From the NCBI GenBank assembly GCA_964016885.1, contig OZ024740.1, positions 354,454,001 through 354,518,000 on the forward strand: 64,000 nucleotides of DNA. Direction: 5' to 3'. The position numbers were made by a program, and so were the translations under genes. Shown here piece after piece: positions 2,014 through 63,798 of this stretch (the stretch's first letter is position 1; each line of letters starts with the position of its first letter). Below the pieces are notes generated by a model. That model had not been told where the DNA came from, searched no databases, and saw only the letters and a program-made list of their open reading frames with translations. Source of the stretch: Eledone cirrhosa. Its lineage: Eukaryota.

Positions 2014-2109
2014 CACAGACTTCTTGATTTATATCATAGTGAGAAAATTCCTGGAAAAATGAAAAGAAAATGACATATAAATTATGTATATATGTGTGCC
2101 ATATATAGT

Positions 2110-2162
2110 GAGATTCCTGATGATTTCTCACGAATGAAACAGTTCTAGTCCTGTAGAATCTC
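2110..2162 (+). ncRNA. Type I hammerhead ribozyme (monomeric, full stem III)
   Basis: Stem I GAGATTC/GAATCTC, core CTGATGA (2117-2123), stem II TTC-TCAC-GAA, GAAA, stem III ACAG/CTGT, GUA cleavage triplet ending at 2155. Confidence 0.8.
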
Positions 2163-2173
2163 TTCTATATTAA

Positions 2174-2221
<48 letters not shown>

Positions 2222-8529: not shown

Positions 8530-9225
8530 ATAATCTGAATTTTTCGAATATTAATAATAACATTCGATTTGTTTGCAATGATGCAAACAAGCCTCATTTT
8601 TAAAGCCATGTCAGCAGAATGAACCCTTCATTCTTGCTCTTGTGTTGGCATGAAACAGAACTGCAGATACTAATGTTTCTGGGTATCACTCTTCATCAAT
8701 ACAGCTCACTGTTCATCTGTCAAAGCTAGTGAAAATATATGCTAAAAAATATATTTTCACTTTACATGGCTGAATACAATAAATGTAATCTGAGTTTTTC
8801 GAATATTAATATTTGAAAAACTCAGATTACATTTATTGTATTCAGCCATGTAGAGCGAAAATTTTTTAATTTTTTATTTGAATGTGGCAAAGCCGGCCAT
8901 TTATCGCTCGTATACAGGAAACTGACTGGTTAGTAATCAGGCTGATCAGTCACTGTATATTTTAGAAAATAGCTTATATTTTCACTAGCTCTGACAGTTG
9001 ACAGGTGAACAGTGAGCTGTACTGATGAAGGGTAATACCCAGAAACATTAGTATCTGAAGTTCTGTTTACATGCCAACACAAGAACAAGAATGAAGGGTT
9101 CATTCTACCGACTTGGCTTTAAAAATGAGGCTTGTTTGCATAATTGCAAACGAATCGAATGTTATTATTAATATTCGAAAAACTCAGATTACATTTATTG
9201 TATTCAGCCATGTAGAGCGAAAAAA
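8530..9225. repeat. Fold-back inverted repeat of a ~362-bp unit with a hammerhead-like core
   Basis: 8530-8810 is the reverse complement (with a deletion) of 8811-9200; CTCAGATTACATTTATTG directly repeated at 8821 and 9183; CTGATGA-GGGTAATACCC-GAAA at 9022-9045. Confidence 0.75.
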
Positions 9226-12967: not shown

Positions 12968-13192
12968 AAGAGTTATTTAAGTCATTTAAAAACACACAAA
13001 AACTATTAACAATACTTAATATTTATTTCTTAGTGTCAAAATGTTTGTCACACAGTCTGCAACCTGATTGCTGACTCAGTTCTACTTGTCACATACAGTG
13101 CAACAGACATTTTGACACCAGGAAATAAATGATAAATATAAAAGTAAAGTTAATAGTTTTTGTGTGTTTCTAAATAGCTAGAATGACTCTTA
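12968..13192. repeat. Old inverted repeat, probably from a Penelope-type repeat
   Basis: AAACACACAAAAACTATTAAC / GTTAATAGTTTTTGTGTGTTT arms; the centre has a decayed TGTGTGAC-AAA-CATTTTGAC resembling the 35889 hammerhead. Confidence 0.55.
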
Positions 13193-20661: not shown

Positions 20662-20985
20662 GAAGGCACTCCGTTGGTTACAATGACGAGTGTTCCAGTT
20701 GATCTGATCAATGGAAAAGCCTGCTCATTAAATTAACAGGCAAGTGGCTGAGCCTTCCAAAGACACGTGTACCCTTACTGTAGTTCTCAGGGAGATTCAG
20801 CTTGACACAGAATGTGACAAGGCTGATCCTTCAAATTAAAGGCACAACTCATTTTTGTCAGCTGAGTGAACTGAAGCAACATGAAATAAAGTATCTTGCT
20901 CAAGGACACAACGCACCGCCAGGAATCAAACTCATAAACTTACGATTGTGAGTCGAATACCCTAACCACAAAGCTACATGCCTAC
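20662..20985 (-). mobile_element. tRNA-derived SINE with CORE-like central domain
   Basis: Minus strand has a tRNA-like head followed by GTCCTTGAGCAAGATACTTTATTTCA. Confidence 0.75.
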
Positions 20986-21237
20986 TACATTCACACAAAA
21001 CACAAGTAACATATGAGAACAATACTACTTTATTACTGGGGTAGTGAAAAAGCATCTATGTCATTATTCAACCTGTCTGATGTAACATCTAAATCTCCCC
21101 CAATACAACTCCTAGCATCTTTAAAATGAGGGACAAAGAGCAGCATGTTTTAAATGCTAAATCCTAGATTATAAACAGAACCTCCCATCATTAGACATAT
21201 ATTCTCTTGTATAAGATGTTATTCACAGATTCTTTAA

Positions 21238-25083: not shown

Positions 25084-25547
25084 ATATATATATATATAAT
25101 TAAAAGGAACTTTTGAAAAGGGAATACCGAGAAAAATGTGGAATGATATGCTGATGGCAGACGCCATTCACCTACCCCCTCACCTCATCTCTCAGCCTTG
25201 CAAAGTCTATACCCTAGCTACAATCTCCACTAATGACTTCTCAGCCAAGCCAAGGACACAGAGCACCCTAGTGTTGTAATAAGGTAGTGCTGGGGTAATG
25301 ACAAAAATCACCCAGTCAACCCTGTAAGGTGGTGTCAGAGTCATAATAAAATGCACCCAGTACATGATGTAGAGTGGTTGGCATTAAGCATTGGGAAGGG
25401 TGTCCATCCATAGAAACAAAGAAGCATACAAACAGAACCTAGTCACCTGAACAGTCCAACTTCAGCATACCACAACCATCTAACCCATGCAAGCATGCAA
25501 AGTAGATGTTAAATCATGATGAAGATGATATAATTATATATACATAT

Positions 25548-25890
25548 ATCATCATCATTTCATTTTACGTCCGCTTTTTCCCTGCTTGCAAGGGTGGGAC
25601 GGGAACTGATTTTGGCTTGATTTCTACAGCTGGATGCCCTTCCTAACACCAACCTCATTTACAGTGAGTGCTGGGGGCTTTTTTGCCGTGGCACCTGCAC
25701 GACCACTTTGCAGTGGATATGATATGGACCCCAGTCCCTATCATCTCATTTCTACAGCTGAGTAAACTGGAGCAATGTGAAATAAAGTGTCTTGCTCAAG
25801 GAAACAACACATCACCTGGTCTGAGAATTGAACTCACAACCTTTCGATTGCAAGTCCAATGCTCTAACCACTAAGCCATGTGCCTCCATA
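25548..25890 (-). mobile_element. Full-length tRNA-head/CORE-like/RTE-tail SINE
   Basis: Close reverse complement of 56643-56981. Confidence 0.85.
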
Positions 25891-27664
25891 CATATGTATA
25901 TATATATTTATTTACTCAGCTGTAGAAATGAGTTGCAACATCACTGGTGCCAAGCTGTATCGGCTAACGCTTTTCCTTTGGACATCATCAGTGGCACGGA
26001 GAGGGGAGGCTGGTATGCATAGGCAACTGCTGGTCTTCCACAAACAGCCTTGCTCAGACTTGCACTTCAGAGGAAAACTTTCTAGGTGTAAATCCCATCA
26101 TCATTCGTGACCAAAGGGAGTCTTTTAAATATATATATATCATCATCATCATCGTTTATATATATATAAATATCAGAGACCACCCACTTGTTTTAGGGTC
26201 ACCCTCATAACCCAGCACTTCCTTCGCACACAGTGGCCTCTTTCCGGACAATTGGTATATAGCTTATGCCCTATGTTCAGACTAGTCACAGAACACGACA
26301 GTCAACCTAACCTAGACATAGAAAATAGCCATTTAACGATGATGATGATGATGTATTCCCTCTTGCTCTTATCCTGTCCAACCCATGCATGGAAAGCCGG
26401 GCAAATTCTACAACATACTGCTATGTGCAATCCACTCTCTTGAAGCCAAACTCCTCGGATACATCAATTGTTTTCTCACTGTGGTCTCTCATAACAATAG
26501 CATGTAGCTCAAAAGGATAAAAGGCAAAATTGACCTCCATAAGATTTGAACTTAGAGTGCAGTGAATGAGAACAAATACTGTAAAACATTTTAGCCAACG
26601 CTCTAACACATAACTATTTTCCTTATATAAAGATAATATTGATATTGGGCCATGTACATTAGTTTACTAGAGATAACAATAAAATAGTTTATTGTCAATA
26701 AATAGATCTTGACCCTCCAGTAGGGTCATAATAATATAGTTTATTTTGACAATACAAAGACACAATGATTGCACATATCAAGGAAACAATCTTGTATATG
26801 ATTCTCTCTGGTTTTGGATAACATGCAATTAAAATCCTCAAAGTCACTACAAATGCTAGGCTTCAAACTCTCTGATCTTTTCTGATGACCCCCAAACACA
26901 TAACATAACAACAACTATATTTCATACACTAGAAATCCTCTTCAAAACCAAAAGATACTTTAGCTCGAATCAATTGCTGACCCTCTAAAAAGCTCATATA
27001 AGAACGACATTTGTTGAACTATTTGATTTCCCTACAGAAAGATAATAAGTCTTGACATGCACTCATGATCATTAGATTACTTTATGCACACATATATACA
27101 TGCACATACACACATATACAAGCACACAAACACACACACAAGCATGTAAGAAATACACAACACACATGAATGCACACATGCACTAAAACATGCATGCATG
27201 CACAGGAGATCCTTCTGTAGCTCATCATGGAACATATGATGTGAAATCAATCTGTTTTCTGAAAGCCATATGAAATGAAAAACAATTCCTGCTGTTAACT
27301 GAAAATACATTTTTTTCAAAGCTTTCCAATTACAGTTTACACGTGAATACCATAAAAAAAAAAAAACAGACCAAGCAGGCTTCATACTAATTAATCAATC
27401 AATATATATTATCTTGTGTGATTGTGATCGAATCAGTTGTTTGATTTTTTTCATAAGAGTCATCCAATAATGGGTAGTTTTAGTTCTATTGCCAAATATA
27501 TAAATGGGGGTTATGATGTTGTCTTTCTCAAATTAAATGAAACAATAACAAACATGAATTGAACAAAATGTTGTGTACTCACTAAGAGTTTAGATTCTAC
27601 TCTACAACACTAAGCAATTAATTATACCAGCAATATGGTTGAAGGAAAATACTACAGTGGGACA

Positions 27665-60449: not shown

Positions 60450-60725
60450 CTAAAGTCTGTCTTAAGCCAGAAGGCTCATTTGGCCGGTGCTTATCCCGGT
60501 TTCATGGCGTGAAGCGACTGAGAGTACAAGACTCCCCCCTGGACAGGACGCCAGTCCATCGCAGGGTTAAACCTCCAGCTATTGCTGGTACTCATTTTCA
60601 GCTGAGTAGACCGGAGCAACGTGAAGTAAAGTGTCTTGTTCAAGGAAACAACACATCACCCGGTCCGAGAACTGAACTCACAACCTTTCAATTGCAAGCC
60701 TACTGCTCTAACCACTAAGCCTTCA
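60450..60725 (-). mobile_element. tRNA-derived CORE-like SINE with a different tail
   Basis: Head homologous to 25790-25880. Confidence 0.75.
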
Positions 60726-60729
60726 CATA

Positions 60730-61022
60730 TCTATATATATATAAAACTGAGGATGTCTGTCTGTGTGTGTGTGAGTTTGAATCCCTAAAACTCAAGAACC
60801 ACCCAACCGACTGTTTTCAAACTTTACACATGTAATACTTATGTTTCAGGGAGTGTTCTGAGCAAACAGAATTTCAAATTTTCAATGCCCTAGGGACCGC
60901 ATTAGGCGATTTAGCGATCTCTCTCTATAATCTTAGTCTTTCTCTTTTTAGATAGATACATACATATAACGTCCCGCCCTTATAATATCTGTCTGTATGT
61001 CTGGCTGTCTGCATTACGTCAC

Positions 61023-61713: not shown

Positions 61714-61714
<1 letters not shown>
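60730..61714 (+). mobile_element. Non-autonomous Helitron
   Basis: 5' A|TCTATATATATATAAAA; 3' hairpin ATCCGTGCAACGCCGGGT plus CTAG|T; internal repeats GGG(C/A)CCGCATTAGG x4. Confidence 0.8.
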
Positions 61715-61749
<35 letters not shown>

Positions 61750-61753
<4 letters not shown>

Positions 61754-63195
61754 TGTGAGGTTTTTGATATGAAATCGTCTGTCGAAACAAATATTGTTAT
61801 ACTTAGGGAGGGTCATATTTGTGTAATAATATTGCCAGAATTAATAACAGAACACACTCACTGTTTGGTTGGTTTTCGCTTCTGTATCTTTTATATCAGT
61901 TAATTTATTCGGTCCTCAATGTTTACCATTGACTGACCAACGGTCAAAAATACAAATATAATATAATATAGATATAAACACATATATATAGTCTAACAAA
62001 GTTCTTTCGTTGCACATCTGCAACATCATCAGTGGTAGTATTATGTTCCTCCTGTTGTATTGTATATCTACGCCATCTTTATTTAATCTGTTTATATATT
62101 TATTTATTTATTTTTGTCTTCTTCTCTGCGCATGCGTTTGCGTGTGTGTATAGTGTTTGGTGTGTATTTGCGTTTGGGTGACTGTGTTTTGGTTATTGTA
62201 TTCTATCTTAGTTTACTAGTGTGTGCTTGTATGTGTTTGTGTATATATTTATTTATATTTCTCTTAGGTCAGTATTGTTTGTTTGGGTGTTGTTATTCCA
62301 TTCATTTTTTCTGTTTAGCTTCTAAGTTCTATTTCACTTGCCTCTCTGATTTGCCTATCTGCTGGGTAATTTCTATGTTTAGATATTATTTTAATTTCTA
62401 TGTTGTCTATGTTACCGTCATGTTGTTGTCTGGCGTGTTCGTATAGTACTGAACCGTTTTTTCATCCTTTTAGTTCGCCCCAGTGTTGGTCTATATTTTC
62501 ACCTATGCTACGAGCTGTCTCACCTATGTATGTTGTTTCTGCAAGTACCCCCTGTACATCTTATGCTATAGACTACGTTTCTAGTTTTACAGTTTATTCG
62601 GGGGTTTATTTTACATATAATACATTTCTTATTAGTACAGTGGGTTTACTTATGGTAGTTCCTGGCTTTTCTACCACCTTAATCTTTAAGTGGGTCTTTC
62701 TCAGGGCCTTTCTACACTGGTTAGCTAATTTCCCTCCAGGGGTAGCGTCCAAGAACATGACATTCTGGTATCTCTGGTTGTCGTACCATGAGGTGGCTTT
62801 CCCTGTCTTATGTTTAGTCCTATCTAAGCTATTCCATGATTTGCTCCTGTATAATGGGCAAATTCCTTTCATGTCCAGTTCTATGAGGGTCTTATACTTC
62901 TCCGTGGCTCCTTCGTATACTCTGATTCTGTCTCTTTGGTTGTAGCCAGAGAACTGCATGCAGTTGATGAAGTGTTGGATGTGTCTTTCCATTTCTGTTG
63001 AGTCGCACATGCGGGACACGTTCTTCATCACTCGTACCATGTCTGCTATCAGAATATTAAACTTAGCACTACTGGACATTGTTGAGTTTTTGAGTATTTG
63101 GAGGCCATGGGTTTAGCGTAGTGTGAGTGGAGAATTTGGGCCCTCTCGTCTATAGTGTTAATCCAGAGTTCCGTGTCTAATACAGGTAGTCTTAA
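61750..63195 (-). mobile_element. 5'-truncated Penelope-like element (RT thumb + GIY-YIG endonuclease + hammerhead-bearing 3' repeat)
   Basis: Minus strand reads RLPVLDTELWI..HYAKPM.., ORF 62606-63079 (AKFNIL...FSGY), then after frameshifts CIIC..NCKTRNVVYSIRC..C and TYIGETARSIGE..QH (GIY-YIG). Confidence 0.85.
61993..62038 (-). ncRNA. Minimal type I hammerhead ribozyme in the PLE 3' repeat
   Basis: CUACCA-CUGAUGA-U-GUUGCA gaug UGCAAC-GAAA GAAC UU^UGUUAG (one stem I mismatch). Confidence 0.72.
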
Positions 63196-63227
63196 ACTAC
63201 CTGTATTAGACACGTGTATATATATAT

Positions 63228-63276
<49 letters not shown>

Positions 63277-63278
<2 letters not shown>

Positions 63279-63447
63279 CTAGATGAAATGTAGTTTGGGT
63301 TTGTGTCAGGTAAAAGTACCACAGACGCTCTTTTCCTTGTACGACAACTACAGGAGAAGTACCTAGCTAAAAGTAAACCCCTATACTTAGCTTTTGTTGA
63401 CTTGAAGAAAGCCTTTGACAGAGTACCCCGCTCCATTATCTGGTGGG
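63277..63447 (+). mobile_element. Internal RTE RT fragment
   Basis: GKSTTDALFLVRQLQEKYL..FVDLKKAFDRVPRSIIWW. Confidence 0.9.
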
Positions 63448-63591
63448 TTATTATTTCTCTGAGGAACTGGAATCATATTATTCCAGTTCCTCAGAGAAAT
63501 AACAACCCAACCAGGAGCTGGACATATCGGAGTATTGACTGAGTAAAACACTTCAACAACATGTATAGCTGTCTCTACCACACCAATTCGG

Positions 63592-63646
63592 ACTGCCTGA
63601 AGAGGTCACAGCCAATGATGGCTGTCACCGAAATATATATAGCAGT
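63592..63646 (+). ncRNA. Minimal type I hammerhead ribozyme in a probable PLE/retrozyme fragment (63444-63790)
   Basis: ACTGC-CTGAAGA-GGTcACAGCCA atga TGGCTGTcACC-GAAA TATATA TA^GCAGT; palindromic stem III ATATATAT. Confidence 0.8.
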
Positions 63647-63798
63647 ACATATTTAATAAACGAAGCCAAATTTTAAATATTTGACTTAATTATTTTACTC
63701 CAGAGTAACCAAACCAACCTGCGTACTTCGTTGAGTGCTCCAATTTGCATACTGAGGTGTCGGTAAACAACCAACATATACTCAATATATATATACTC

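Follow-up and report, generated by a model that had tools for sequence, protein, structure and literature searches.

The window analysed here, a stretch of 64,000 nucleotides from Eledone cirrhosa (contig OZ024740.1, positions 354,454,001 to 354,518,000 of the forward strand), is AT-rich animal DNA with dense repeats and (TA)n tracts. From 63214 down to 61752, its minus strand holds the 3' third of a Penelope-like element (PLE). Read 5' to 3', this remnant comprises a reverse transcriptase (RT) thumb, a C-x4-CxxC-x7-C linker, a GIY-YIG nuclease, a minimal type I hammerhead and a tail with the start of an open reading frame (ORF). A preliminary description, made from the letters alone, had named an LPVLD motif, a thumb, a CxxC linker, a VVY...YIG endonuclease and a 3' hammerhead at this place; we found all of them, on the minus strand and over a slightly wider extent (61752-63214). 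The parts are listed below, with their identity to P0002, a predicted protein of Octopus vulgaris.

63217..63276: 5' junction, an interrupted (TA)n tract; beyond it lies an RTE-type fragment (63277-63446)
63193..63214, plus strand: inverted repeat of the insertion's initial ~21 bases, which folds back at the 5' truncation point to give palindrome 63172-63214; its arms pair at 20 of 21 bases
63094..63192, minus strand: RT motif 7 and start of the thumb (RLPVLD...), the first coding piece kept; 73% identity to P0002 556-588; frameshift at ~63093
62651..63097, minus strand: RT thumb, holding a 157-residue ORF; 60% identity to P0002 590-738; hidden Markov model (HMM) E 4e-67
62535..62645, minus strand: C-x4-CxxC-x7-C cysteine linker, then the first half of the GIY-YIG core, with VVY and two cysteines; 57% identity to P0002 751-787
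62324..62533, minus strand: second half of GIY-YIG (YIGET, H...H, catalytic E region), from hhalign and from tblastn pieces in alternating frames
62250..62321, minus strand: end of the ORF (LN.K.EW motif) and stop, from the consensus of relatives
61993..62038, minus strand: minimal type I hammerhead; core 62032-62026, predicted cut after 61999
61752..61816, minus strand: 3' end of the pseudo-long terminal repeat (pLTR), where the next ORF opens with its start codon and runs for its first 21 codons (the PLE tail)
61715..61751: (TA)n at the 3' junction, common to a Helitron-like 3' end at 61714

The coding remnant and its hammerhead

P0002 is the best named relative of the ORF (60% identical over 89% of the query, E 2.9e-54), from a search that gave 8 matches among 121 candidates. 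Used as a tblastn query, it returns three collinear pieces at E 1.3e-71 (63192-63094, 63097-62651 and 62645-62535), and other relatives carry the match onward via YIGET to the end of the ORF near 62253. The 157-residue ORF mentioned in the preliminary description is genuine: it runs from the ATG at 63079, inside the thumb. Phmmer gave 783 relatives at E <= 0.001; those we used were drawn from the best 150 of these matches. An HMM built from 79 fetched proteins, each of at least 250 residues, matches only two places within the window, the remnant (E 4e-67, 2e-19, 2e-12 and 1e-3) and 35954-35718 (E 1e-14), the next-best match having an E of 0.27. For the nuclease half, comparison with a profile of 36 relatives gives an hhalign probability of 98.3 and an E of 2.4e-14. 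Comparisons of these two kinds, by tblastn and by profile, had been suggested beforehand as checks and, together with the hammerhead descriptor match given below, they bear out the earlier claim of a PLE with its own hammerhead.

Full-length relatives encode the RT and GIY-YIG in one ORF, and Pfam recognizes GIY-YIG at E <= 0.01 in 10 of the 36 relatives. Residues of the CCHH type are seen in the copy itself, at both cysteines and both histidine positions. A model of the P0003 nuclease (predicted local distance difference test, pLDDT, 84) matches I-TevI with Z 10.9 and a root-mean-square deviation of 2.0 over 88 aligned residues. For the RT model of P0007 (pLDDT 88), the top three structural matches are telomerases (Z 15.1, 14.3 and 14.2), with a diversity-generating retroelement RT at Z 13.6, less than 1 below the second and third of them; Foldseek places a group II intron RT first and Candida TERT third. 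Other searches were less informative. An RT profile search of the PDB gave weak matches to two bacterial defence RTs, a PDB sequence search with P0027 gave nothing useful, and the first matches to the thumb in the ESM Atlas (0.90-0.88), at a recognition below the trusted level, are a lead only. Could the protein and ribozyme motifs be due to chance, or come from an element other than a PLE? Curated libraries have no match on the window's own pieces, as such an origin would predict. However, the collinear homology at E 1e-71, the full-length relatives and the structure matches leave it a negligible probability, and the tblastn, HMM and hhalign results rule it out.

The copy starts about 54-60 residues past the YVDD of its relatives and keeps about 30% of the full ORF: RT motifs 1-6, including YVDD, are missing, and only motif 7 and the thumb are kept. 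Four public sequencing runs, whose species may differ from that of the window, were matched to the locus at 85% likeness, and all four cover 30 of 30 bins (these depths are not copy numbers). One run (X1) has 16,086 contigs matched at the locus; in another (X13), 668,896 of 12.5 million reduced-representation reads match, 83% of them less than 95% alike. A contig of a third run (X4) extends 192 bases beyond 63192 with different sequence, so that homology stops at 63192, the truncation point. At the frameshift near 63093, family contigs and reads hold 7 extra bases. Near 62650 the copy has lost about 31 bases, with the joint at 62650-62652 in three of the four runs and a contig at 62650 in the fourth. 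An in-frame stop lies at 62464-62462, and 99% of the X1 depth has another letter at 62464. The 7-base gap, the ~31-base gap and this stop are lesions of the window copy. Two further frameshifts lie near 62534 and 62322, and an apparent stop at 62317 was dropped, being out of frame beyond the fourth frameshift. The copy had been proposed as a candidate autonomous partner for ribozyme elements, a claim that does not survive: truncation has removed the RT active site and the ORF has five breaks (four frameshifts and one stop), so that the window copy cannot encode an active RT.

A type I descriptor places C3 of the hammerhead at 62032 and the cleavage base at 61999, on the minus strand. Against an average of 0.2 in 30 approximate dinucleotide shuffles of 1-kb blocks, the window yields 10 motifs in all: the one at 62032 (minus strand), those at 35893, 63597 and 2117, and six in a tandem array. 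Hammerheads at 57135 and 35074 fail the strict descriptor, yet align with those at 62032 and 35893. The hammerhead at 62032 has an unpaired base after A9 and before helix II, a helix II of 6 bp and a helix III of 2 bp. Its minimum-energy fold retains helix II only (z -1.0), so the RNA alone is not in the active shape. The window copy disagrees with most family reads at 62037-62038, the outer portion of helix I, and the pairing there is thus in part fortuitous. Minimal hammerheads are described as cutting poorly or not at all as monomers (PMC4209133), and the PLE ribozyme of the anole as requiring its protein (PMC11167929). This hammerhead is of the usual minimal PLE type and would probably not cut as a lone RNA. 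A loose scan also returned hammerhead-like cores at 25991, 2741, 9022, 63459 and elsewhere, which we rejected since they fail the strict descriptor; around the first, 25908-26128 has sequence in common with a tRNA-derived short interspersed element (SINE; z 7.5).

Sister copies and a proposed origin

Five further elements of the window, besides the tandem array, carry a hammerhead:

56987..57362, plus strand: second copy of the same family, in which an internal deletion brings the nuclease end up against the hammerhead pLTR; its 3' end is short
35509..36072: PLE insertion in head-to-head arrangement, from a related subfamily, with a tailed inverted arm, an RT motif-4 fragment and a direct hammerhead pLTR (C3 35893); flanked on either side by (TA)n
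34916..35305: solo pLTR, palindromic and from the subfamily of the 35.5-kb element; decayed hammerhead (35074); tail on the direct end only
63447..63784, plus strand: unrelated hammerhead element (C3 63597) that is joined to an RTE fragment, has a 35-bp fold-back at its 5' end and ends in (TA)n
2100..2176, plus strand: unrelated short hammerhead element (C3 2117), with (TA)n at its end; a fold-back at 35331-35385 repeats its 3' half

Elements were compared in pairs with the CUGANGA core masked and 60 shuffles as null. The 3' region of the remnant is 91.9% identical to 56987-57362 over 333 aligned columns (z 126), and it matches the 34.9- and 35.5-kb elements at z 11-18; no shuffle reached any of these scores. 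In the 35.5-kb element, the RT motif-4 fragment (35715-~35890, minus strand) has a tblastn E of 2.6e-16 and the arms are 95% identical. The elements at 34.9, 35.5 and 57.0 kb are truncated or deleted PLE copies, not retrozymes. By the same comparison, the hammerheads at 2117 and 63597 resemble neither this family nor the array. The element at 63442-63784 has a 10-bp helix II and a palindromic AT helix III, and gave no PLE protein match; that at 2100-2176 is a third hammerhead family, with a longer helix III of a kind that might cut as a monomer, and the related fold-back at 35331-35385 sits between the two PLE insertions near 35 kb.

The ATG at 61816 opens 21 codons, which run into (TA)n. This tail (61752..61816) is 80% identical to that of the 35.5-kb element, and the tails at 35590, 35225 and 61816 rank 1, 8 and 10 among the 1194 ATG-started peptides of the window. 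In the 34.9- and 35.5-kb elements, one arm has the long 3' end and the other the short one. Craig 2021 (PMC8557442) and Arkhipova 2013 (PMC3846280) describe tails restricted to a single arm, as in the window elements, and the latter describes junction palindromes and a pLTR with a tail of 12-22 codons in PLEs. The locus thus has a 5' truncation with an inverted 5' arm and a one-end tail holding the ORF start, although unanchored peptide tests of the tail are weak. Metagenome scanning gave two relative loci. One of them (L001) is an independent, intact-looking relative with a minimal hammerhead 34 bases past the stop and (TA)n 57 bases past the cut site (region 1683-1789); its hammerhead has a 5-bp helix I and a palindromic UUAA in helix III. 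The order of ORF, minimal hammerhead and (TA)n is that of the remnant. The sequence of the other (L002) ends at its stop codon.

These features suggest the following order of events. An intact member of the family would have nicked a (TA)n tract through its GIY-YIG nuclease, and reverse transcription of the element RNA would have been primed inside the first codons of the next tandem ORF, 3' of the hammerhead, leaving the tail at 61752-61816. Synthesis would have halted after about 1.44 kb, whereupon the new strand may have looped onto itself, using about 21 of its own bases as template, and then joined the target. The copy would have lacked an RT active site from the outset, and would have gained its four frameshifts and its stop later. 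This family and a sister subfamily may have given rise by the same route to the elements at 34.9, 35.5 and 57.0 kb. Nicking and internal priming (PMC11167929) and self-priming palindromes (PMC3846280) have been described for PLEs.

We therefore read the locus as a dead, 5'-truncated copy from a many-copy family of C-terminal-nuclease PLEs, with the origin just proposed, and give this reading a probability of about 85%. Several results weigh against it. Searched at the gathering score, Rfam has no hammerhead anywhere in the window, where it recognizes only a tRNA-like SINE head; Pfam has neither a GIY-YIG nor an RT match on the window's own pieces; and with the P0003 nuclease model, Foldseek ranks I-TevI and UvrC first at E >= 0.008, with nothing at E <= 0.001. 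The ranking of the tails was made against the first 22 residues of three full-length relatives, a choice that followed the resemblance being noticed. Compared unanchored with the relatives' whole proteins, the tail peptides give nothing significant; against the first 30 residues, one comparison in nine came to 26 of 2000, and against the first 70 all 18 stayed at 64 of 1000 or more. Nor is the fold-back specific to PLEs, since window repeats devoid of a hammerhead also hold long palindromes (102/105 at 33.8 kb and 52/55 at 8.8 kb). Finally, the age of the copy may be overstated by the likeness of the reads, because the runs need not come from the window's species.

Two observations may be added on these structures. 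Hammerhead-free repeats with long palindromes lie at 33670-33977, 8744-8876, 12968-13191 and 25483-25595, perhaps as fold-back insertions, miniature inverted-repeat transposable elements or products of assembly. In the inverted arm of the 35.5-kb element (35690-35740), the junction of RT fragment and pLTR falls close to the predicted hammerhead cut and has a short microhomology in duplicate; this joint could reflect template switching onto a cleaved RNA end, or chance.

The retrozyme array and contact with (TA)n

The six remaining descriptor motifs belong to one element:

40051..41821, minus strand: non-LTR (non-long terminal repeat) retrozyme array; 5.7 tandem units of ~310 bp, 34.5% GC, with six canonical type I hammerheads in all and (TA)n at either end

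Its units measure 310, 296, 310, 309 and 310 bases, with one 14-base deletion, and the five whole monomers show no substitutions in any of their 10 pairwise comparisons. Extended helix I is intact in all six ribozymes, which have a U-U pair at the base of helix II. Non-coding tandem units within 170-400 bases, a low GC content and a type I hammerhead in each are the features of a textbook non-LTR retrozyme, and the array is one; it shows no homology to the PLE remnant and is a separate element. It also looks much younger, its monomers having no substitutions whereas most reads of the PLE family are less than 95% like the copy, although homogenisation could also produce uniform monomers, a caution that belongs with those listed above.

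Which machinery moved the array? The preliminary description held that PLE machinery in this genome drives the hammerhead elements, most of which abut (TA)n. As to contact, it was right: of the 16 ends set by hand for eight hammerhead-related elements, 12 have (TA)4+ no more than 15 bases away, which is true of 5.8% of random positions. However, (TA)n also adjoins 5 of 8 RTE-type tails and 3 of 3 Helitron-like ends, over a background of about 4%, and contact with (TA)n can therefore not identify the mobiliser. An earlier, narrower rule for RTE tails gave 4 of 6. The labels RTE-type and Helitron-like go by end motifs, with a Pif1 helicase ORF nearby. We discarded an automated count of repeat ends other than those of hammerhead elements (19/62 near TA), which mixes in internal fragment ends and counts some twice, in favour of true 3' ends. 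Target-site duplications are unreadable inside (TA)n. To assign a mobiliser in this window, fixed internal 3' ends and shared tails serve, while (TA)n contact does not.

As to PLE machinery, the claim holds in part: three elements share the 3' end of the remnant, but the array and the elements at 2117 and 63597 are dissimilar to the family. That PLEs might mobilise retrozymes is already in print, first in 2020 with long interspersed elements (LINEs) or PLEs as candidates (PMC7229834), then argued in 2026 from pLTR homology in Xenopus (bioRxiv 10.64898/2026.07.22.740005). It is improbable that this copy or its family is an autonomous partner moving all hammerhead elements of the window in trans, the 310-bp retrozyme included. 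The family does have many copies, remnant and array both lie in (TA)n, as do most ends counted above, and the array breaks off within a unit, at an AT-rich spot 129 bases beyond the cut site and without an RTE tail, which resembles PLE internal priming. Yet the RT active site is gone from the window copy, and the array lacks a 5' fold-back and has identical monomers where the family is diverged. Between the array and the 3' region of the remnant the alignment score is 28, against a null of 23 +/- 3 that reaches it in 8 of 60 shuffles; with the shorter pLTR piece, z is 3.0 and 1 of 60 shuffles reaches the score.

An RTE element or another LINE could have moved the array instead, with (TA)n a general site of accumulation. 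RTE-type elements are abundant, their tails, like the Helitron-like ends, abut (TA)n well above background, and LINEs are among the candidates listed in PMC7229834. RTE-type tails at retrozyme junctions had been named beforehand as a sign against PLEs, but the array has no (TGA)n or other RTE-type tail at its end. It shows no similarity to the RTE 3' end either (score 15, null 17.5), where a tRNA-SINE control reaches z 19.9, and we consider this origin unlikely. Similarly unlikely, in our estimate, is local growth as a satellite from an old solo pLTR, by unequal exchange or circular DNA and without recent reverse transcription. Such a route is offered in the preprint cited above (10.64898/2026.07.22.740005) and would be consistent with monomers identical save for indels; against it, both array ends are partial units cleanly set in (TA)n, and extended helix I is whole in all six ribozymes, as one rolling-circle cDNA would give. 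We lean, with some reserve, towards movement of the array by a PLE. If so, this would probably be another, younger PLE family that is still active; 31 recently active PLE families are reported from O. vulgaris (PMC13282606). The window neither proves the partnership of PLEs and retrozymes nor names the partner; its value is that RTE controls stand next to PLE remnants and a highly uniform retrozyme array.

Other repeats surround these elements. A tRNA-derived SINE family is found at 25544-25908, 56623-56986, 60591-60743 and 20845-20990, its two long copies having the RTE 3' end and a (TGA)n tail. The Pif1-type helicase ORF spans 58434-59177, and three Helitron-like 3' ends (4157, 60323 and 61714) are each followed directly by (TA)n. 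Interrupted (TA)n satellite covers several kilobases (46600-53200 and 39430-40050), and a 200-base gap of N lies at 45969-46168.

Affinities among Penelope-like elements

Taken by itself, the remnant at 61752-63214 is an unremarkable transposon fossil, and nothing is new in the hammerheads, fold-backs, tails or (TA)n bias of PLEs. What may be new is a lineage with a long fingers insertion in the RT. From the D of RT3 to the G of RT4 there are 127-134 residues in 16 of the 16 relatives that bear motif 3 (insertion-bearing relatives include P0002, P0004-P0007, P0024 and P0027). Our hand counts on Fig. S1 of PMC8557442 give 61 for Penelope, 63 for Nematis, 60 for Neptune and 84 for Naiad, and about 118 for human TERT if the same D column is assumed. 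The extra stretch of about 70 residues, near 83-155 in P0007, is conserved and modelled as folded, with a pLDDT of 87-94 for residues 81-120 and 66-67 for residues 121-140 in the P0007 model. Canonical C-terminal-nuclease PLEs are said to have no fingers insertion, regions like telomerase's IFD (insertion in fingers domain) being sporadic in Coprina (PMC8557442); all 16 relatives depart from this. The insertion is attributed to the family through these relatives, because the window copy lacks the RT3-RT4 region. Two relatives are marked by Pfam PF28514 (DUF8422), a family that may extend over the insert.

The family's typical motifs GGAIG, GGPIG, CPTR and LPVLD do not occur in the Craig 2021 supplement (PMC8557442). 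A literature search on Penelope and the IFD gave that paper and telomerase papers only, and we found no description of a telomerase-sized insertion in C-terminal-nuclease PLEs, though Repbase or Arkhipova 2006 may already name the lineage. It is possible, but we hold it only tentatively, that the remnant comes from an undescribed, widespread PLE lineage combining a C-terminal GIY-YIG, a Nematis-type linker, a minimal hammerhead and a folded, telomerase-sized fingers insertion of about 70 residues. The insertion bears on whether the IFD came from the common ancestor of PLEs and telomerase or arose several times. Were it homologous to the telomerase IFD, the IFD would be ancestral in PLEs, and the lineage would be a closer working model of telomerase than the PLEs so far studied. 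Telomerase RT and the Naiad/Chlamys PLEs have a long insertion at the same RT3-RT4 place. The likeness is one of place and size; this family differs from both in its C-terminal nuclease and canonical hammerhead. Naiad/Chlamys, which have an N-terminal nuclease and no canonical hammerhead, were accordingly set aside as a clade for the remnant.

Among the remaining clades, the linker points to Nematis. Besides the copy, 31 of the 35 relatives with Y.GET have the cysteine pattern. Among 47 relatives its final spacer measures 7 residues in 28 and 5-12 in 42, is never longer, and the pattern is missing in five. The copy thus has the reduced CX2-5CxxC linker of Nematis, whose published rows (PMC8557442, Fig. 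S2) read C-x(3-4)-CxxC and then 5-7 residues to the next C, against 7 here. The RT differs from the three published rows: RT3-RT4 measures 63 in the C. remanei row and about 131 in our relatives, and Nematis rows have DKRG or DKGG where the relatives have DKSG. Judged from these motifs, the linker fits Nematis and the RT does not, and the remnant would come from an unassigned clade. Neptune, a first guess, shares the CX2-5CxxC linker and a hypothesised (TA)n bias, but it has about 22-25 residues after CxxC, against 7 here, and an RT3-RT4 of about 60 (PMC8557442); it was dropped on linker spacing. The Penelope/Poseidon clade has no cysteine linker, which is present here. The Hydra clade, defined by CxCX5C, DKT and no CCHH, does not fit the CX4CxxC linker and CCHH-type residues of the copy; DKS occurs in most long relatives and DKT in one.

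Non-LTR retrozymes (PMC7229834; 10.64898/2026.07.22.740005) resemble the array in its ~310-bp units, low GC content and hammerhead in each unit; the remnant, in contrast, is coding PLE sequence. Retrozyme families of Xenopus match 21 Repbase PLEs, while the array has no pLTR match among the PLE pieces of the window. With the minimal PLE hammerheads of PMC4209133, that of the remnant shares a short helix I, a long helix II, an unpaired base at the 5' end of helix II, a near-absent helix III and opposite-strand pairs within a few hundred bases; it differs, as a predicted ribozyme, in the 6 bp of its helix II and in a helix III loop that is not palindromic. A telomerase-like RT (in the relative P0007), GIY-YIG after the RT in one ORF and a predicted pLTR hammerhead are PLE features that the family displays. 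With the canonical C-terminal endonuclease-bearing PLEs (PMC8557442; PMC3846280) it has in common the order RT, thumb, linker and GIY-YIG, a CCHH-type nuclease, 5' truncation, an inverted 5' arm with a junction palindrome, an ORF-start tail, a hammerhead in the pLTR and AT-rich targets.

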